Source: an uncultured Candidatus Rokubacteria bacterium
Lineage (GTDB): Bacteria > Methylomirabilota > Methylomirabilia > Rokubacteriales > DASRDR01
NCBI GenBank assembly: GCA_963826115.1
Contig: CAWGVS010000006.1
Span: forward strand, 480,001 to 544,000
Length of the DNA stretch: 64,000 nucleotides
Reading direction: 5' to 3'
Shown: piece by piece, positions 52,186-60,224 of the stretch
Layout of the letters: the number at the start of each line of letters is the position of its first letter
Numbering within the stretch: position 1 is the first letter of the stretch
Program-made: the position numbers and the translations under genes
The notes under the pieces: model-generated
The model's input: only the letters and a program-made list of their open reading frames with translations
Told to the model about the DNA's origin: nothing
Databases searched by the model: none

Positions 52186-55100
52186 ATGACCCTCCTGCCC
52201 GAGATGGTGGGGGAGAGCCCGGGAATCGCGGCCATCCGAGACCGGATCGCCCGACTCGTGGCTCGGGCGTCGGACGTCCGGCGCCTGCCCCCTGTCCTGA
52301 TCCAGGGCGAGACCGGCAGCGGCAAGGGGCTGGTGGCGCGCGCGCTCCACCGCGCCGGGCCCCGGTCGGGCGGGCCCTTCGTCGACGTCAACTGCGCGGC
52401 GATTCCCGAGACGCTGCTCGAGGCGGAGATGTTCGGCTTCGAGCGGGGCGCCTTCACGGACGCCCGCCAGGCGAAGCGCGGCCTGTTCCAGACCGCGCAC
52501 CGCGGGACGCTCTTCCTCGACGAGATCGGGCTCCTGCCCGACGGGCTTCAGGCGAAGCTTCTCACGGTGCTCGAGGAGCGGACGGTCCGGCGCCTCGGTG
52601 CGACGCAGAGCGAGCCGGTCGACGTGTGGATCATTGCCGCGACCAACCTCGATCTCCTGGCCGCGACGCGGGCCGGCCGGTTCCGTGAGGACCTCTACCA
52701 CCGACTGGCCGTGCTGACGCTGGCCCTGCCTCCGCTCCGGGAGCGTCAGCAGGACGTCGTCCTCCTTGCCGAGCACTTCCTGGCGCGCGCGTGCGCCGAC
52801 TACGGCCTGTCGCCCAAGACCCTCGCGCCCGATGCCCGGGCGGCGCTCGTCTCCTACCGGTGGCCTGGCAACGTCCGGGAGCTGATCAACACCATGGAGC
52901 GGGTCACGCTGCTGGCCGAGGCGTCAGTCGTGACCGCCGATCTCCTGGGGCTCTCCGACGGCGGTCCGGCCGCCGCGGGTCCCGTGGCGGTGTCGCCCCC
53001 ACCCCCACCCGCGCCCGCGTCGCTGGCGGCCGTGGTGGACGGGGCCGAGCGGGCCCACCTCCAGGAGGCGCTCGAGGCGACCAGCTGGAACGTCACGCGC
53101 GCCGCCGCGCGCCTTGGGATCTCCCGGAACACCATCCGGTACCGCATGGAGAAGCACGGGCTCCGCCACGGGGCGCCCGCGCCGCCGCGCCGGACCCGGC
53201 AGCCCGCGCCCGCGCCGTCGGCGCCCGTGGTGCCCGCCCCGTCCGTCGAGACGGCCGCGCGGACCGGCATCCGGTGGGAGCGCCGGCACCTTGCGATTCT
53301 CCTCGCTCGGCTGGCCTCCGACCCCGACGCGGGCCCGCTCGACACGGGCCGCGTCATCGAAGCGCTCGTCGAGAAGGCCCGGTCCTTCGGGGGTCGCGTC
53401 GACGAGCTGGGTGCCAGCGGCTTCGTCGCCCTGTTCGGCCTCGAGCCGATCGAGGATCCCGTGCGGCGCGCCGCGCTGGCCGCTCTCGCCATGCAGCGCG
53501 CTGCCGGCCGGACGTCGGACGGCGGGCCGGCTCCCGTCCTCCGGTTCGGCGTCGACCGGGGCTCCTTCCTGATCGGCCGCCTGTCCGACGCCTCGCTGGT
53601 CGACGCGGAGGACAAGCGCACGGCGCTGAGTGCCATGGGGGCGCTCGTCGAGAGTGCCGAGCCCGGCACGGTCGTCGTCAGCGCCGCAGGCGCGTCGCTC
53701 CTCGCCCGTGGCTTCGACCTCGCGCCGCTCGGCGCCGCGGCGGGGCGGCGGGCCGCGTTCCGGCTCGGGGGGCTCGAGCGCGCGGAGGCGGCGAGCGGCC
53801 GCCGCACGCGCTTCGTCGGGCGCGATCACGAGCTCGAGCTCCTCCGTGGGCGCCTCGCCGCCGCGGTGCGCGGCCAGGGTCAGGTGGTGGCGATCGCGGG
53901 AGACGCTGGCATCGGCAAGTCCCGGCTCGTCGGCGAGCTCCGCCGCGACCTGACCGGCGACGGCATCCTCTGCCTCGAAGGGCACTGCCTGCCCTACGCG
54001 ACGCCCATCCCGTGCCTGCCGCTGGTCGAGCTCCTGCGCGCCGCGTGCGCCATCGTCGAGACCGACGGACCCGAGGGCGTCCGCGACAAGCTACGGGCGA
54101 GCCTCGACCGCGCCGGCATGGACGCGATCGCCTCGGCCCCGTACCTGCTCCATCTCCTCGACCCCGGCGAGGGCGGGGAGGCGCTGGCGCGCCTCAGCCC
54201 CGACGTCGTGAAGGCGAGGACGTTCGAGACCCTGCGGGAGCTCAGCCGGCGGCTCGCCGGCCGGACGCCGCTCGTGATCGTGGTGGAGGACCTTCACTGG
54301 GTCGACCGGACGTCGGAGGAATACCTCGGGACGCTGGTCGACGTCGTCGCCGGGGCTCGCATCCTCCTCGTCACCACGCACCGGCCGGGGTACCGGCCGC
54401 CGTGGATGGACCGGTCCTACGCGACCCAGGTCGCGCTTCAGCCGCTGTCGCCGCACGAGAGCCAGAGCCTGGTCCGCGACGTGATCGGCCCGGCCGACGT
54501 CGACGAGCCCACGGTCGAGATGATCGTGTCCAAGGCGGAGGGGAACCCGTTCTTCGCCGAGGAGCTGGCGCGGGCCGTTACCGAAGGGGGCCGCCCCACG
54601 CCCGGGTCGCCGGTCCCCGACACCGTCGAGGGCGTCCTGATGGCGCGCATCGACCGCCTCGCCGCCGAGGACAAGCGGGTTCTCCAGGCCGCGGCGGTCA
54701 TCGGGCGGACGCTGCCCTTCCTCCTGCTCCAGGCGATCCTGGAGCCGGCCGACGAGGCGCTCCGCGAGCGGCTCGCGCGGCTCCAGGGCGCCGAGTTCCT
54801 CTACGAGACCCGCGCGGCCTCGGAGCTCGAGTACACGTTCAAGCATGCCCTCACGCACGAGGTGGCGTACGCGAGTCTCCTGCCCGCCCAGCGGCGGGCG
54901 CTTCACGCCCGCATCGTCGACGTGCTCGAGAGCTGGCAGCGGGAGGGGCGGGAGGAGCTCGTCGAGCGTCTCGCGCACCACGCCATCCAGGCCGAGGCCT
55001 GGGAGAAGGCCGTCGACTACGCGCGGCGCGCCGGGCGGCAGGCGCTCACCCGGTCCGCGCACCGGGATGCGGCGGCATGGTTCGACCAGGCGCTGTCAGC

Positions 55101-56289
55101 GGTGAGCCATCTGCCCGAGCGCCGCGAGCGCCTCGAGCAAGCGATCGACCTCCAGTTCGACCTGCGGAACGCCCTCTGGCCCCTGGCCGAGTTCCGCCGG
55201 GTCTTCGAGTGCCTCAAGCGGGCCGAGCAGCTGGCCACGACCCTGGGCGACCAGAAGCGGCTCGCGATGACGTTCGCGCTCCTGACGCCGATGTTCTCGA
55301 CGCAGGAGGAGCAGGCCAAGGGGATCGAGTACGGCCGGCGGGCGCTGGACCTCGGCGTCGCGCTCGGCGACACCACGGTGCAGGTGGTCGCGACCCTCTA
55401 CCTGGCCATGGCGTACCTGACGCTGGGCAACTACTCGCGGGCCACGAAGTTCGCGCGGAAGAACGTGGCGCTCCTCCAGGGGAACGTGCGGCTCGAGCAG
55501 TTCGGGCCGCACGGCCTGCACGCCGAGCCGGCCATCCTGCCGCGGGCCCTGCTCCTCTGGAGCTTCGGGGAGCTGGGCGCGTTCGCCGAGGCGCAGCCGG
55601 TCCTGGAGGAGAGCCTGCGCATCGCCGAAACCATCGACCATCCGTGGTCCCAGACCTTCCTGGCGCTCGGGGAGGGCATCCTGCGCGTGCGCCAGGGTGA
55701 TCTGCCGCGGGCGGTCCGGACGCTCGAGCGCAGCCTCGCCCTCTGCCGCCAGTGGCAGCTCGCGGCGCTGTTCGAGGTGATCACCGGGCATCTCGGCCAC
55801 GCGTACACGCTGGCGGGGCGCACCGGTGAGGCGATCCCCCTCCTGGAGGAGGGCCTGGCGGAGCGCCGGCACTGGCTCGAGCCGTTCCCGCTGCTCGCGC
55901 TGGCGGAGGCCTACCTGCGCGTGGGGCGGACGCGCGAGGCGAGCCAGACGGCCGAGCGGGCGCTCGGTCTCGCCCGCCAGCGCGGCCAGCGCGGGCACGA
56001 GGCGTGGCTGCGCTGGCTTCTCGGCGAGATCGCGCGGCTGGACCCCGCGGGGTCAGCGGCCGACGTCGAGGCGCACTACGGGCAGGCGCTCGACCTGGCG
56101 ACGGAGCTCGACATGCGCCCGCTCGCCGCCCACTGCCACCTGGGTCTCGGCCAGTGGCACCGCCAGCGCGGCGACGCGGCCCGGGAGCAGGAGCACATGA
56201 CGACGGCCCGGTCGCTCTACCGGGAGATGGGCATGACGCTCTGGCTTGCCAAGGTCGAGGCCGAGCAGCCGGCCGTGTCGGGCGCCTAG
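52186..56289 (+). CDS. sigma-54 activator (AAA+, Fis-HTH) fused to degenerate class III cyclase-like, STAND ATPase and TPR domains
   Basis: GETGSGK, GAFTDA, LFLDEI, FREDLYHRL, WPGNVREL, HTH; then FVGR..EL, GDAGIGKS, VVEDLHW, GNPFF, FKHAL and helical repeats. Confidence 0.88.
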   Translation: MTLLPEMVGESPGIAAIRDRIARLVARASDVRRLPPVLIQGETGSGKGLVARALHRAGPRSGGPFVDVNCAAIPETLLEAEMFGFERGAFTDARQAKRGLFQTAHRGTLFLDEIGLLPDGLQAKLLTVLEERTVRRLGATQSEPVDVWIIAATNLDLLAATRAGRFREDLYHRLAVLTLALPPLRERQQDVVLLAEHFLARACADYGLSPKTLAPDARAALVSYRWPGNVRELINTMERVTLLAEASVVTADLLGLSDGGPAAAGPVAVSPPPPPAPASLAAVVDGAERAHLQEALEATSWNVTRAAARLGISRNTIRYRMEKHGLRHGAPAPPRRTRQPAPAPSAPVVPAPSVETAARTGIRWERRHLAILLARLASDPDAGPLDTGRVIEALVEKARSFGGRVDELGASGFVALFGLEPIEDPVRRAALAALAMQRAAGRTSDGGPAPVLRFGVDRGSFLIGRLSDASLVDAEDKRTALSAMGALVESAEPGTVVVSAAGASLLARGFDLAPLGAAAGRRAAFRLGGLERAEAASGRRTRFVGRDHELELLRGRLAAAVRGQGQVVAIAGDAGIGKSRLVGELRRDLTGDGILCLEGHCLPYATPIPCLPLVELLRAACAIVETDGPEGVRDKLRASLDRAGMDAIASAPYLLHLLDPGEGGEALARLSPDVVKARTFETLRELSRRLAGRTPLVIVVEDLHWVDRTSEEYLGTLVDVVAGARILLVTTHRPGYRPPWMDRSYATQVALQPLSPHESQSLVRDVIGPADVDEPTVEMIVSKAEGNPFFAEELARAVTEGGRPTPGSPVPDTVEGVLMARIDRLAAEDKRVLQAAAVIGRTLPFLLLQAILEPADEALRERLARLQGAEFLYETRAASELEYTFKHALTHEVAYASLLPAQRRALHARIVDVLESWQREGREELVERLAHHAIQAEAWEKAVDYARRAGRQALTRSAHRDAAAWFDQALSAVSHLPERRERLEQAIDLQFDLRNALWPLAEFRRVFECLKRAEQLATTLGDQKRLAMTFALLTPMFSTQEEQAKGIEYGRRALDLGVALGDTTVQVVATLYLAMAYLTLGNYSRATKFARKNVALLQGNVRLEQFGPHGLHAEPAILPRALLLWSFGELGAFAEAQPVLEESLRIAETIDHPWSQTFLALGEGILRVRQGDLPRAVRTLERSLALCRQWQLAALFEVITGHLGHAYTLAGRTGEAIPLLEEGLAERRHWLEPFPLLALAEAYLRVGRTREASQTAERALGLARQRGQRGHEAWLRWLLGEIARLDPAGSAADVEAHYGQALDLATELDMRPLAAHCHLGLGQWHRQRGDAAREQEHMTTARSLYREMGMTLWLAKVEAEQPAVSGA

Positions 56290-56296
56290 CGCCCGC

Positions 56297-56842
56297 TCAG
56301 GGATTCGCGCCGAGGAGCGCCAGGAGCAGCTGGCGCGCGGCCGGCTGGGCCCAGTCCTTGGCCCCCACGGAGCGGGCGACGAGCCGCCCGCTCCGGTCCA
56401 CCACGTAGACGGTCGGCGGTCCCCACACGCCGTAGAGCCGCCCGGCCACGTCGCCGGTCCGGTCGAGCAGGACCGGGGCGACGTAGTCCCGCTCCTGCGC
56501 GACCTTCGCCACGTGGGCCGCATCCTCGCGGAAGTTGACGAGCAGCACCTCGAGACCACGGCCCCGGAGCTCCGTGTAGAGCCGGTTGAGGGGAGGCAAC
56601 TCCTCCCGGCAGTCCGGTCACCACGTCGCCCAGAAGAAGAGCAGGACGACCTTGCCCTTGAGCTCGCCGAGGGTCCAGGTCCGCCCGGTCAGATCGGGGA
56701 GGCTGAACGCCGGCGCGGGCTTCGGCGGCTCGTAGGCCTGGAAGTCCATGGCGGTCAGGTCGGGGCCCGCGGCGTGCGCCGTGCCGGTGACGCAGACGAG
56801 CAGGAGCGCGCCGACGACGGCCGCGCCGCGGCGGCGGCTCAC
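56297..56842 (-). CDS. exported TlpA/ResA-like redoxin, probable selenoprotein (UxxC)
   Basis: FFWATW-TGA-PDC-REELP is continuous in one frame (UGA at 56618-56620); cis-Pro WGPPT; SECIS-like hairpin. Confidence 0.87.
56591..56607 (-). promoter_or_regulatory. SECIS-like hairpin of the TlpA-like gene
   Basis: GGGAGG-AGUUG-CCUCCC starts 10 nt after the in-frame UGA. Confidence 0.65.
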
Positions 56843-57390
56843 GACGCCCCGCTCTCGCGAACGGCCTTGAGCACGTCCTCGGGCTCGAGGAGGTCCAGGG
56901 GGTTGTCCTGGATCTTCAGGTAGCGGACGACGCCCGCCCGGTCGATGACGAAGTACGCGCGCTTCGCGTAGCGATAGATGGGGCTCTTCTCGTCCGTGAC
57001 CATCGCGCCGTACGCGGGCAGCATCGTCCGCCGCTGGTCCGAGAGGAGCGGGTGCTTGATGCCCTGCTGCTTCTGGAAGGCGTCGAGGGCGGAGACGAAG
57101 TCCACGCTGATCCCGATCAGCTGCGCGTTCAGGGCCTGGAAGTCGGCCAGCCGGGCGTCCAGCCCGGTGATCTCCTTGATTCAGGGGCCGTTGAACGCGC
57201 CGATGAACGTGTAGAGCACGATCGGCCCCTTGCCGAGCAGGTCCGCGAGCTTGACCTGCTTGCCGCCCGGGGCGTTGAGGGTGAAGTCGGGGGCCTTGTC
57301 TCCGACGTCGAGCGCCTGCGCGGGGCCGGCGAGCGCCAGGACGGCGAGAACGGTGAGCGAGACCGCGAGTGCGACACCGCGTCGGAGCAT
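56839..57390 (-). CDS. exported peroxiredoxin (AhpC/TSA, BCP-like), probable selenoprotein
   Basis: VGDKAPDFTL..VLYTFIGAFNGP-TGA-IKE..GISVD..LLSD..RAYFVID is continuous in one frame (UGA at 57181-57183); AGGAGG SD; no Cys anywhere in the protein. Confidence 0.87.
57151..57167 (-). promoter_or_regulatory. SECIS-like hairpin of the peroxiredoxin gene
   Basis: CCGGGC-UGGAC-GCCCGG starts 13 nt after the in-frame UGA. Confidence 0.65.
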
Positions 57391-57503
57391 GGCGACCTCC
57401 TCCTGGTCCAGGGAATACCGAACCCGGGACGCGTGTCGTCGTCGAGGGCTCCTGCCGGAGAGAACGCCACCCGGGAGGTCCAGGGTTCCCGGGCGCTCCC
57501 GGC

Positions 57504-60224
57504 TCACTCCAGACATTCTAGCTCCGTGATGGTCCAGGGGTCTCGGAGGGGTCCGGCCGGGCTCACGCGCAGGTAGCGGAGGCTCACTGGGCCGAACGCG
57601 GCGGCCCACCGGGGCCCGCCGTTCCGCAGGAGCTCGGAGCCGGTCCAGAAGAGCGCGCCGGACCAGGTCAGCGGCTCGATGGCGGTCCACGTCGTCCCGT
57701 CGAGGGAGCCCGCGAGCCGGAGGGCGCGGCCGGGGAGCCCGGGGCGGATCTCCACGCCACGCAGCGCGCGAGGCCGTCCGAGATCCACCGTGAGCGCGTG
57801 CTCGGGCCCTCCGGGGCCGCGCGTGGCCCACGGCGTCGCGCGGTTCCCGTCGATGGCCCGCCCCGCCAGCTCCGGGTTCTCGCTGGCCGTCGCCCGCCAT
57901 CCGGCCTTGTCGAGGCGACGCGGGGGTGGCGTCGGCGTGAGCACCAGGAGGCGGTAGGGACCCGCGACGGCCTCCCGCACGGTCACCGGCTGGCCCTCGA
58001 GCGCCGCGCGCACCGCCACGGGGTCGGCGTCGGCGCCGAGGAGGATACCGGTACCTGGCTCGATGTGGAGCGGAACCAGCTCCGTCGGATCGGGGTCGGT
58101 GCGCGACGAGTCGCTCACGTTGATGTTCGCTTCTTGCGCGGCGATGGCGCCCCGCGACTCGACGCGCACCCACGCGGAGAGCCAGTGGCTCGCGTAGACG
58201 AAGTCGATGCCCTCGCGCCGGAGGGCGGCGGTGATCTCGCCGGGCGCGGGCACCGGGGGCCGGGGCCCGCCGGGCCCGTACACGGAGAGCTCCCGCGCCG
58301 ACCAGATGTGGTATCGCACCGCCGCGGTCTGGACGATCCGCACGTGCCGCGCGCGAACGGGGGCGAAGATGGCCTGCACGCGCCCGCGCCGGACCTTGAG
58401 GAACGGATGATGCTCGGAGAAAAAGAGCGGGCCCCAGTATCCGGACACGGTGACGACCGTGTCCCACCGCTGACCGTCCATCGACACCTCGACGCGGAAG
58501 CCGCCCGGCAGGTCCTGCCAGTCGATCGCGAGGAGGTCCACGCGGGCGACGAGCTCGGGCGCGCCCAGGTCGACCTCGAGCCACTGGTCCGGCATCAGCT
58601 CGAGGGCCGTGGTCCACGACGACGCGGCGTCCCCGTCGAGGAGGTCCGCGGCCCGGTCGGAGCGGTGGCTGGCCCGGATCGTCCAGCGCTCGCGCGGGAG
58701 CGGCACGAACGTCGTGCTGAAGCGCGGCGAGAGCTCGAGGACGTGAAGCTCGCCCAGCACGGTCTCCCGGAAGTCGACACCGAGCCCCTGGAGAGTGTCA
58801 CGCAGCGGGCGCACCTCCGTCGGGGCCGCGATGATCGGCGGGTTCACCGCGGCGTCGACGAGCCGTCCGTGGTCCACGATCTGCTCCCGCCAGAGATCGG
58901 CGATCACGACTCGCCCGCCAGTCAGGTACGTCATGCCGTAGGCCGAGAGGTGAAACGCCCCGGCCAGATAGGCGCCCCGGACGCCGCGGTCCTCGAGCCA
59001 GTGGAGCACGGGGTCGAACCGACGGGTGAGGGTCGTCCACCGGGGCGCTCCCGGGTCCGTGGTGAGCACGCTGTCCTGCCAGTTTGGCCACGCGTTGAGC
59101 GCGAGCAGCGCGGCCAGCGCGGCGCCGGCGGCGAGCGGTCGCCGACGCCGGAGTCGGTCGAGGCCCTCGCCCATCCAGCAGGGAAGGACGGAGTACAGCG
59201 GGAGCAGGTAGTAGTGGTCGATCGCGCGCTTCGAGCCGAGGACGAGTCCGAGGTTCGTGATGGCGACGATCCACAGGACGACCTGCCCGCGCCCGATCGA
59301 CCCTCGCCCTCCGACGAGCCACGCGAGCTGGGCGCGGTGCCGGACCGCGGCCCCCACGACCGCGGCGATCCAGAGGGGCACCGCGATCGCGAGGAACGCG
59401 ACGATCCAGGCCCGCCCCGCCGGTAGATGCAGGCCGAGGAGGCGGGGGAGAAAGTCTCCCACGACCGCCGCCAGCCGGTCGCCGAACGGCGCCGGGGTGA
59501 CACCGCCCGCCTGGTGCAGGGCAAACTTCGCCGACGGGAAGTTCCTCGTTTCGTACAGCCATTGCGGGACGCCGCCGAGGAGGAGCCCGCCGGCGAACCA
59601 GGCGATGCGCCATCGCCACACGAGGCCGGTCCGGAGCGCCAGGATCCCGAACGGCGCGAGGTAGACCACGATCAGCGGATTCAGCCACCAGCCGAGCCCG
59701 GCGAGCAGACCGAGCCCGAGGAGCGCCCGGGGCCGGCCCGGATCGGCGACGAAGATCGTGTGGGTCGCCAGGATGCAGAGGTTGCCCACGGCCAGTGCTG
59801 CGGGGTGGTTGGGGGTCGCCGTGAAGCTCCACTGGGCGAGGAACAGCGGTGGGACCGCGAGCACCGCGAGACCGAGGAGCGCGGCGGGCCGTTCGAGGAA
59901 GCGGCGCAGGACCAGCCAGCCGGTCCAGAGAATGAAGAGGCCGATGAAATACGCGAACCAGTCGAGCGCCCGCGGGGCTGGGCCGACCATCTCGAACCAC
60001 GCGGCCAAGGGATAGGCCGAGGCCGCGCCCCAATACTCCGGACCGGCGACGTTCGCCGGGAAGTGGCCGCCGAGGATCCGGAGGGCGGGCATCGCGACCA
60101 TGCTCTCGTCCCAGTGGAACGGCCAGTGGAAGGGCGCGACGAACCGGAGCGCCCGGACGCAGGCCCCGACCACGAGCAGGCCGGGGACGAGAAGCCGCAC
60201 CACTCGGTCGCCCCCGGATCTCAT
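57504..60224 (-). CDS. GT-C (PMT/ArnT-like) membrane glycosyltransferase with two discoidin/F5-8 type C-like domains
   Basis: WDE motif after the first TM, many TMs; AS..A.DG..SW..WLEVDLG and AIDGN..W..LTVDLG domains. Confidence 0.75.
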   Translation of the reverse strand: MRSGGDRVVRLLVPGLLVVGACVRALRFVAPFHWPFHWDESMVAMPALRILGGHFPANVAGPEYWGAASAYPLAAWFEMVGPAPRALDWFAYFIGLFILWTGWLVLRRFLERPAALLGLAVLAVPPLFLAQWSFTATPNHPAALAVGNLCILATHTIFVADPGRPRALLGLGLLAGLGWWLNPLIVVYLAPFGILALRTGLVWRWRIAWFAGGLLLGGVPQWLYETRNFPSAKFALHQAGGVTPAPFGDRLAAVVGDFLPRLLGLHLPAGRAWIVAFLAIAVPLWIAAVVGAAVRHRAQLAWLVGGRGSIGRGQVVLWIVAITNLGLVLGSKRAIDHYYLLPLYSVLPCWMGEGLDRLRRRRPLAAGAALAALLALNAWPNWQDSVLTTDPGAPRWTTLTRRFDPVLHWLEDRGVRGAYLAGAFHLSAYGMTYLTGGRVVIADLWREQIVDHGRLVDAAVNPPIIAAPTEVRPLRDTLQGLGVDFRETVLGELHVLELSPRFSTTFVPLPRERWTIRASHRSDRAADLLDGDAASSWTTALELMPDQWLEVDLGAPELVARVDLLAIDWQDLPGGFRVEVSMDGQRWDTVVTVSGYWGPLFFSEHHPFLKVRRGRVQAIFAPVRARHVRIVQTAAVRYHIWSARELSVYGPGGPRPPVPAPGEITAALRREGIDFVYASHWLSAWVRVESRGAIAAQEANINVSDSSRTDPDPTELVPLHIEPGTGILLGADADPVAVRAALEGQPVTVREAVAGPYRLLVLTPTPPPRRLDKAGWRATASENPELAGRAIDGNRATPWATRGPGGPEHALTVDLGRPRALRGVEIRPGLPGRALRLAGSLDGTTWTAIEPLTWSGALFWTGSELLRNGGPRWAAAFGPVSLRYLRVSPAGPLRDPWTITELECLE

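Follow-up and report, generated by a model that had tools for sequence, protein, structure and literature searches.

We analyzed a 64,000-nucleotide stretch of contig CAWGVS010000006.1 (positions 480,001 to 544,000 of the forward strand; assembly GCA_963826115.1) from an uncultured Candidatus Rokubacteria bacterium, hereafter the window, whose minus strand carries between positions 56297 and 57390 two overlapping genes that are almost certainly genuine selenoprotein genes, as secure as sequence analysis allows. Gene 1 (56839..57390; ATG at 57390, stop TGA at 56841-56839, 183 amino acids) encodes a predicted exported protein of the AhpC/TSA family, resembling BCP/PrxQ-type peroxiredoxins (Prx) with a single selenocysteine (Sec, U). 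Gene 2 (56297..56842; GTG at 56842, stop TGA at 56299-56297, 181 amino acids) encodes a predicted exported TlpA/ResA-like thioredoxin-fold protein with a W-U-P-D-C motif. The start codon of gene 2 and the stop codon of gene 1 share, on direct reading, the tetranucleotide GTGA (56839..56842, minus strand), an arrangement suggestive of translational coupling. When TGA is read as Sec, each translation has exactly one internal TGA: in gene 1 it lies at 57183-57181, in the context ...FIGAFNGP-U-IKEITG..., where it would supply the peroxidatic residue (U70, codon 57181..57183), and in gene 2 at 56620-56618, in the context ...FFWATW-U-PDCREE..., where it would supply the first residue of a UxxC motif (U75, codon 56618..56620). 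Gene 1 has zero Cys codons. Under translation table 11, calling of open reading frames (ORFs) breaks the region into fragments of 74, 100 and 88 and one merged upstream frame. These features bear out the original prediction, which had described two genes fragmented in the ORF track, overlapping by GTGA and each continuous through one in-frame UGA at the catalytic Cys position (AFNGP-U-IKE and WATW-U-PDC), with no Cys at all in the Prx.

The 6.24-Mb genome encodes selA (576 bits), selB (348 bits), a tRNA-Sec (76.9 bits) and selD (393 bits), all above curated cut-offs, and ARAGORN calls the tRNA as tRNA-SeC with the anticodon tca. The genes for SelA, SelB and tRNA-Sec are clustered on contig 8 (C8:81424-86039), and selD, on contig 5 (C5:561687-562604), itself contains an in-frame TGA at HGAG-U-ACK, followed by a strong hairpin 15 nt downstream. 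The search for selA, selB, selC and selD that had been proposed as the first check of the recoding claim hence recovers all four. TGA also serves as an ordinary stop: of the 66 related loci, 64 have it at the end of gene 1, and it closes 71 of the window's 101 stop-to-stop frames that are 300 codons or longer. We further observed TlpA-like or Prx-like paralogues with one in-frame TGA at C2:160630-161097, C11:52733-53149, C5:2072477-2072914, C6:242054-242401, C5:917349-917855 and C5:868954-869397; because several such paralogues are present, this genome seems to be rich in thioredoxin-fold selenoproteins.

To follow the two TGA codons through evolution we used 66 related loci carrying the gene pair, obtained in three retrievals (20, 6 and 40) that reached a few genomes twice, which leave 61 to 63 distinct sequences after the removal of duplicates. 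Because these genomes are related and thus not independent, the counts and p-values given throughout are descriptive only. All 66 loci have TGA at both recoded positions; in the alignments, the U70 column is TGA in all 61 gene 1 orthologues and the U75 column in all 59 gene 2 orthologues. Protein identity to the window, on either side of the TGA and in both genes, lies between 52% and 85%. As TGA has been kept down to 52% identity although a one-base change would give Cys, selection appears to favor Sec itself. Searches of 201 genomes sampled evenly from the phylum recovered 133 matches to gene 1 at E<=1e-35 in 111 genomes, 132 of them with an in-frame TGA; the lone match without one (G015) spans only residues 80-182 and stops short of U70. 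Likewise, 123 of the 125 gene 2 matches at E<=1e-40, found in 117 genomes, have an in-frame TGA, and the two that lack it (G018, with WATWCSPC, and G085, of which only the former was read at the site) are Cys forms or paralogues. Counted in these totals are three unpublished genomes (G038, G119 and G080), on none of which the alignments rest.

Farther afield, 80 more distant loci were compared at the U70 column, where 52 have TGC or TGT and 28 have TGA. The Cys codons occur in Ignavibacteria, Bacteroidota, Verrucomicrobiota, Bathyarchaeia and others (AFTGVCTKE), and the TGA codons in Rokubacteria, Binatia and Acidobacteriota/Terriglobia. Together with Cys homologues of known structure, which align at both U70 and U75, these loci supply Cys-containing homologues at the Sec positions, in line with a further check that had been proposed. 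The loci from Acidobacteriota/Terriglobia metagenome-assembled genomes (MAGs) (L062-L064, L067, L079, L087, L095 and L126) represent a different Sec-peroxiredoxin branch with the motif AFTGG-U-TKE, and often have, a few hundred bases off, a second Sec-Prx paralogue on the same strand (AFTPG-U-TKE or ASTPG-U-AxE). At the level of independent assemblies, two DNA contigs cross the gene 2 TGA and the gene junction with 0 differences, and contigs from RNA libraries of two studies cross the gene 1 UGA, one identical over 151 nt and one with 6 differences over 219 nt; these RNA-library contigs may come from contaminating DNA and are no proof of transcription. No alternative base was seen at either TGA in the aligned metagenome contigs, which carry TGA and neither of the Cys codons TGC and TGT that would have spoken against recoding. 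None of the sequencing runs screened contained at least half of the sampled words (best 0.48).

Bacterial Sec insertion relies on a hairpin located just 3' of the UGA, and folding places a candidate hairpin resembling a selenocysteine insertion sequence (SECIS) downstream of both codons: CCGGGC-UGGAC-GCCCGG (57151..57167, minus strand) 13 nt past the UGA of gene 1, and GGGAGG-AGUUG-CCUCCC (56591..56607, minus strand) 10 nt past that of gene 2. The original prediction of a 6-bp stem of GC pairs with a 5-nt loop, 10-13 nt past each UGA, stands as regards spacing, stem length and loop, but needs correction for gene 2, whose stem comprises five G-C pairs and one A-U pair. Because the DNA is GC-rich, the fold energies of single sequences are uninformative, and comparative analysis was used instead; it is through comparative data only that the hairpins rise above chance. 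Across 63 distinct gene 2 sequences, every one of the 378 hairpin cells is paired, as against 62-79% when the 3' arm was slid as a control. Two of its pairs vary in a compensatory manner over these 63 sequences: pair 22/34 is G-U in 23, G-C in 22, A-U in 17 and U-A in 1, and pair 23/33 is A-U in 60, G-C in 2 and C-G in 1. The first four bases of the loop, AGUU(G/A), are invariant. Codon choice within the hairpin is also constrained, with Leu82 being TTG or TTA in 59 of 59 orthologues and Pro83 being CCT in 56 of 59, whereas neighboring Leu codons are CTC or CTG; the 11 columns past the UGA average a synonymous-codon entropy of 0.42, compared to 1.13 for the 89 other columns (Mann-Whitney p 2e-5).

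The hairpin of gene 1 differs between genera. The form seen in the window persists within its genus, where L035 shows the one compensatory variant (CUGGGC/GCCCAG). In other genera there is instead a longer two-helix hairpin placed farther downstream. As the RNAalifold consensus of 20 gene 1 sequences mixed these two architectures, they were split by eye and the two-helix form was then scored separately: it is 87% paired over 62 sequences, compared to 31-55% with the arm slid, and shows swaps between G-C and C-G. Synonymous-codon entropy past the UGA of gene 1 is 0.61, versus 0.91 elsewhere (p 0.016). Hence, both downstream hairpins are conserved as RNA elements, with compensatory changes and suppressed synonymous variation. 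Taken with the Sec machinery, the conservation of TGA and the Cys homologues, this covariation strongly supports the proposal that in both genes UGA encodes Sec where homologues have their catalytic Cys.

Profile searches place the gene 1 product in the AhpC/TSA family (PF00578, 104.7 bits against a cut-off of 26; Redoxin, 72.7 bits). Its nearest relatives in the PDB are the archaeal BCP peroxiredoxins 2ywn (E 4e-20) and 2cx3 (E 9e-20), whose peroxidatic Cys (AFTQVCTKE and AFSPVCTKE) aligns to U70. U70, Glu73 and the catalytic Arg144 are invariant in all 61 orthologues. We accordingly predict that gene 1 encodes a BCP/PrxQ-like peroxiredoxin-fold protein with Sec70 as its sole redox residue. 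The gene 2 product scores 90.8 bits with the Pfam AhpC-TSA model, 76.9 with Redoxin and 44.8 with Thioredoxin_8, and is closest in the PDB to the thioredoxin-family protein 3kcm (E 6e-28), in which WCPPC aligns to WUPDC, followed by DsbE, ResA and TlpA structures. Its 59 aligned orthologues all share W-[AT]-T-W-U-x-x-C-R and P143 within GPPT, which we take to be the cis-Pro of the thioredoxin fold. These affinities point to membership of the TlpA/ResA/CcmG-like oxidoreductases at the superfamily level only. Mature-region Cys residues are absent from all 61 Prx orthologues, and also from all 59 TlpA-like orthologues outside the UxxC motif; any resolving step would therefore have to come from the partner.

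Both proteins are likely exported. The gene 1 product begins with MLRR followed by a hydrophobic core and AQA|L, a predicted signal peptide of residues 1-26 (...PAQA|LDVG; 57313..57390, minus strand), and that of gene 2 with MSRRR, a hydrophobic core and AHA|A with an A-x-A site, a predicted signal peptide or signal anchor of residues 1-24 (...TAHA|AGPD; 56771..56842, minus strand). By eye, these patterns are kept in the 61 and 59 aligned orthologues respectively, in keeping with the earlier assignment of a signal peptide to each protein. Further, alignment to cytoplasmic homologues in the PDB starts only at residue 27 for gene 1 and residue 41 for gene 2. A lipoprotein reading of gene 2 based on Cys17 (LLLVCVTG) was rejected, with Val at the -1 position and the Cys missing from the orthologues.

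Several features speak for a functional pair. Over the 66 loci the overlap is 4 nt in 57 and 1 nt in 4, with the start undetermined in 3 and mis-assigned by the script in 2. A gene-2-type match lies directly downstream of 98 of the 133 gene 1 matches (coordinates compared by hand), and 106 of the 201 genomes of the phylum have both genes, 5 gene 1 only, 11 gene 2 only and 79 neither. The same genome contains a second Prx+TlpA operon on contig 5 (1679025-1680076; L046 1501-2552), in which a Sec-containing Prx-like gene with a signal peptide (AAFAPT-U-VAN) overlaps by GTGA a TlpA-like gene of the Cys type (WATWCPPC). In loci L058-L060 a Sec-Prx has a Cys TlpA-like gene upstream of it, and a deltaproteobacterial MAG (L122) has an all-Cys Prx + TlpA pair. 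A possible electron source is also present: CcdA is the usual electron donor for TlpA/ResA-type proteins, and there is one PF02683 match above cut-off in the genome (62.3 bits), a 246-residue CcdA-like ORF with two Cys-bearing motifs that is unlinked to the operon.

These observations suggest a scheme in which a translationally coupled two-gene operon would yield two exported selenoproteins. In each mRNA the hairpin 10-13 nt past the UGA would recruit SelB and tRNA-Sec such that the UGA is read as Sec, and the UGA closing gene 1, which has no such hairpin, would bring about termination. After Sec-dependent export, Sec70 would reduce peroxide and be oxidized to a selenenic acid, which Sec75 of the TlpA-like partner might attack to form a transient Se-Se link; Cys78 would then resolve this link, forming an intramolecular selenenylsulfide and freeing the reduced peroxiredoxin. 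The TlpA-like protein could in turn be re-reduced by the single CcdA of the genome using electrons from cytoplasmic thioredoxin. Inferred in this scheme are export, the action of gene 1 as a peroxidase, a direct partnership of the two proteins and the nature of the chemical intermediates. A peroxidase function of the gene 1 product is probable. Direct reduction of this protein by its TlpA-like partner we judge somewhat likelier than the contrary; it is made plausible by the conserved 4-nt overlap, the recurring Prx+TlpA module and a precedent from Caulobacter crescentus. As described in the part of Cho et al. 2012 (PMC3322552) that we drew upon, in that organism TlpA, supplied with electrons by ScsB or DsbD, reduces PprX, an exported peroxiredoxin of the BCP/PrxQ type. 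Overall, an operon of two exported selenoproteins acting as a peroxide relay is the best explanation of the data, and one we favor with reserve. A stronger version, namely that this is an obligately selenium-based two-component envelope peroxidase working through a Sec70-Sec75 intermolecular diselenide, in which Sec freed the Prx from the near-universal PxxxT motif, is a tentative and rather doubtful extension. Its basis with regard to release from PxxxT would be the replacement of Pro by Ile throughout and of Thr by Asn, Ala, Ser or Glu in 14 of the 61 orthologues.

Several points weigh against the peroxide relay, or against the steps leading up to it: 1) The Prx motif is I-x-x-x-N-x-x-U in the window, rather than P-x-x-x-T-x-x-C, and thus departs from the full P-x-x-x-T/S-x-x-C motif. 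At the position of the Pro, 59 of the 61 orthologues have Ile, one has Val and one has Gly, and none has Pro; that of the Thr, Asn in the window, is T in 47, N in 9, A in 2, S in 2 and E in 1. The Cys homologues of gene 1 in other phyla retain P...T..C. 2) Gene 1 lies below the NCBIfam equivalog cut-offs, scoring 52.9 bits with bcp (cut-off 140), 42 with PrxU (NF040737; 270) and 38.8 with Prx-SUH (NF045827; 298), and so does gene 2, with 91.1 bits for ResA (170), 67 for TlpA (230) and 59.4 for DsbE (123); no NCBIfam equivalog cut-off is reached by either protein, including those of the named selenoprotein models PrxU, Prx-SUH and WAxxUGC. 3) In one subclade (e.g. G021, G028, G035 and G074; loci L172-L176) the Sec-Prx stands solo, and in G021 the Sec-TlpA gene is on another contig. 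Physical linkage is therefore not obligatory, and the operon appears to have been split, or put together later, during the evolution of the phylum. 4) The signal peptides of both proteins were called by visual inspection. 5) Folded as single sequences, the 60 nt past each UGA are no better than shuffled ones (z -0.63 for gene 1 and -0.26 for gene 2). 6) Sec insertion, export, peroxidase activity and electron transfer are predictions from sequence. The kinship among the related genomes and the possible DNA origin of the RNA-library contigs belong on the same side of the balance.

The first three of these points are shared by the alternative that survives best, which we consider possible but unlikely: that both exported selenoproteins are genuine and merely co-expressed, with no peroxide relay between them. 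In this case the TlpA-like protein would act in the maturation of cytochrome c or copper centers or in the reduction of envelope disulfides, and the Prx-fold protein may have diverged to some other substrate, such as sulfenylated or selenylated envelope proteins or metal(loid) species. The loss of the PxxxT part of the motif, scores far under every equivalog cut-off for both proteins, the unlinked genes of the one subclade and the presence in the genome of several other TlpA-like paralogues, some with TGA, are all in line with it. A parallel exists in PrxL, a Prx-like envelope protein without the conserved residues that, according to the part of Cho et al. (PMC3322552) on which we draw, had no detectable peroxidase activity. 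Speaking against it is the invariance of the peroxidatic position, Glu73 and Arg144 in 61 of 61 orthologues, the retention of the 4-nt overlap in 57 of the 66 loci and the independent reappearance of Prx+TlpA modules with Sec/Sec, Sec/Cys and Cys/Cys chemistry. Moreover, a Sec nucleophile requires less activation than Cys, and therefore the loss of the Pro and Thr need not abolish peroxidase activity.

A second alternative grants decoding of the UGAs but holds that the residue inserted is never, or only sometimes, Sec: Cys might be inserted via the Sec pathway under selenium scarcity, or another residue by near-cognate read-through, such that the working proteins would be thiol enzymes. The identity of the inserted residue does rest on comparison of sequences, the selenium supply of soils is variable, and Cys relatives are clearly functional elsewhere, as in the 52 of 80 distant loci and the Cys TlpA-like paralogue of G018. 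However, the complete selABCD set with its own Sec-containing selD, the SECIS hairpins kept at the canonical distance and the retention of TGA over a divergence reaching 52% identity, where one base change would suffice for Cys, render this very improbable. Finally, the notion that the TGAs are true stops, leaving four gene fragments or pseudogenes, or mere sequencing errors, accords with the fragmentary table-11 ORF calls and with the fact that 111 of the 120 listed database relatives are C-terminal fragments of 102-113 amino acids, but is already refuted, as far as sequence data can refute it, by protein conservation (52-85% identity) that continues unbroken past both TGAs in all 66 loci, by the placement of TGA exactly at the catalytic residue, by the same TGA in independent metagenome contigs and by the N-terminal fragments, which in the absence of read-through would miss the whole fold.

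The preferred reading, in which the two selenoproteins form a peroxide relay, has its closest counterpart in the ScsB/DsbD-TlpA-PprX system of Caulobacter. The two are alike in combining an exported BCP/PrxQ-type Prx, an exported TlpA-type protein and a DsbD-family transporter (here CcdA), although in our case this is a prediction from the genes. They differ in that both catalytic nucleophiles are Sec in the Rokubacterial pair and Cys in Caulobacter, and in that our genes overlap in a single operon, whereas those of Caulobacter have the distant locus numbers CC1673 and CC2210. The Prx described here also lacks a resolving residue, whereas PprX has two distant Cys, and it lacks the Pro, and in the window also the Thr, of the PxxxTxxC motif that Cho et al. 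term absolutely conserved, both statements on PprX being taken from the consulted portion of PMC3322552. A second point of reference is AhpE, the 1-Cys Prx of Mycobacterium tuberculosis (PDB 1xvw and 4x0x, among others; E ~1e-10), with which gene 1 shares a single catalytic chalcogen, no resolving Cys and a need for an external reductant; AhpE is, however, cytoplasmic, Cys-based and more distant from gene 1 than the archaeal BCPs 2ywn and 2cx3.

With regard to selenoprotein catalogs, Table 1 of the 2026 review PMC13188914 lists among the prokaryotic families Prx (PF00578, TxxU), a Prx-like thiol:disulfide oxidoreductase (PF00578, UxxC) and a thiol:disulfide interchange protein (UxxC). The review also describes operons of selenoprotein genes, for instance Prx combined with a SelW-like gene or a Prx-like with an AhpD-like gene, and refers to Deng et al. 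2026 for a MAG of the Methylomirabilota in which 63 selenoprotein genes are predicted, the phylum being known as selenoprotein-rich. In the Global Ocean Sampling (GOS) study (PMC2398784, Table 2), as far as the part consulted extends, Prx and 'Prx-like 1' (UxxC) are abundant Sec families and neighboring selenoprotein pairs are only sporadic. Gene 1 resembles the Sec-Prx cataloged in the consulted parts of these two sources (TxxU), and PrxU, in its AhpC/TSA fold and in its peroxidatic Sec followed by T/I-K-E, and 47 of the 61 orthologues conform to TxxU. It differs from them and from PrxU (NF040737) in its signal peptide, in Ile for Pro and, in the window, Asn for Thr, and in its score of 42 bits against 270, and is further distinguished by its usual coupling to a second selenoprotein gene. 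Gene 2 is likened to the cataloged UxxC selenoproteins by their description in the portion consulted, namely a TlpA/ResA-like fold (PF00578/PF08534) with Sec first in UxxC, and differs in being the downstream partner of a Sec-peroxiredoxin. A literature search of incomplete coverage, with most subscription journals outside it, found no paper on this operon. Thus, both proteins belong to cataloged kinds of selenoprotein, and together they make up a selenium-based version of an envelope redox system that is already known.

As for the surroundings of the operon, a Shine-Dalgarno-like sequence, AGGAGGAGG (57396..57404, minus strand), was recognized by direct reading 5 nt before the ATG of gene 1. 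A scan of 56150-57650 for sigma-70 promoters found none, and a scan of the same interval for terminators found one terminator-like site, inside gene 2, where ~0.3 such sites are expected by chance. Upstream of gene 1 and on the same strand, separated from it by a gap of 113 nt, is a gene (57504-60224, minus strand) for a 906-residue membrane protein whose N-terminus resembles PMT_2 glycosyltransferases and which also has two F5/8 type C (discoidin) domains. On the other side, a gene on the plus strand (52186-56289) is convergent with the operon and ends 8 nt from the gene 2 stop; it encodes a 1367-residue fusion of a sigma-54 activator AAA+ domain with HTH_8, followed by AAA_16 and TPR repeats. 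The TAG stop of this fusion gene lies in the loop of a palindrome, GGGCGC-CTA-GCGCCC (56280-56294).

The fragmentation of the public protein records has consequences of its own. Beside the C-terminal fragments mentioned above, there are a few full-length database calls from short contigs, in which the U column is W in three, G in one and a true Cys in one. The W or G at the Sec column in P0003, P0004, P0007 and P0008 would fit calling under an alternative genetic code, with TGA as Trp or Gly, that is, an annotation artefact. As public annotation truncates this Sec-Prx/TlpA family, inventories of the selenoproteome and of antioxidant genes in soil metagenomes would therefore under-count it. The pair is thus useful for annotation and a good target for biochemistry, and will be no surprise to specialists; since its components are of known kinds, the advance is incremental. 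If the relay is true, it would mean that soil Rokubacteria/Methylomirabilota protect their envelope from peroxides by means of a dedicated enzyme pair based wholly on selenium, and that the fitness of an abundant, uncultured soil phylum is tied to the supply of selenium. It would also offer a natural system in which to study Se-Se and Se-S exchange chemistry and the relaxation by Sec of active-site constraints in peroxiredoxins. Should even the more doubtful two-component mechanism with its intermolecular diselenide be true, the pair would show in a natural setting how Sec can rewire a peroxiredoxin's catalytic architecture.

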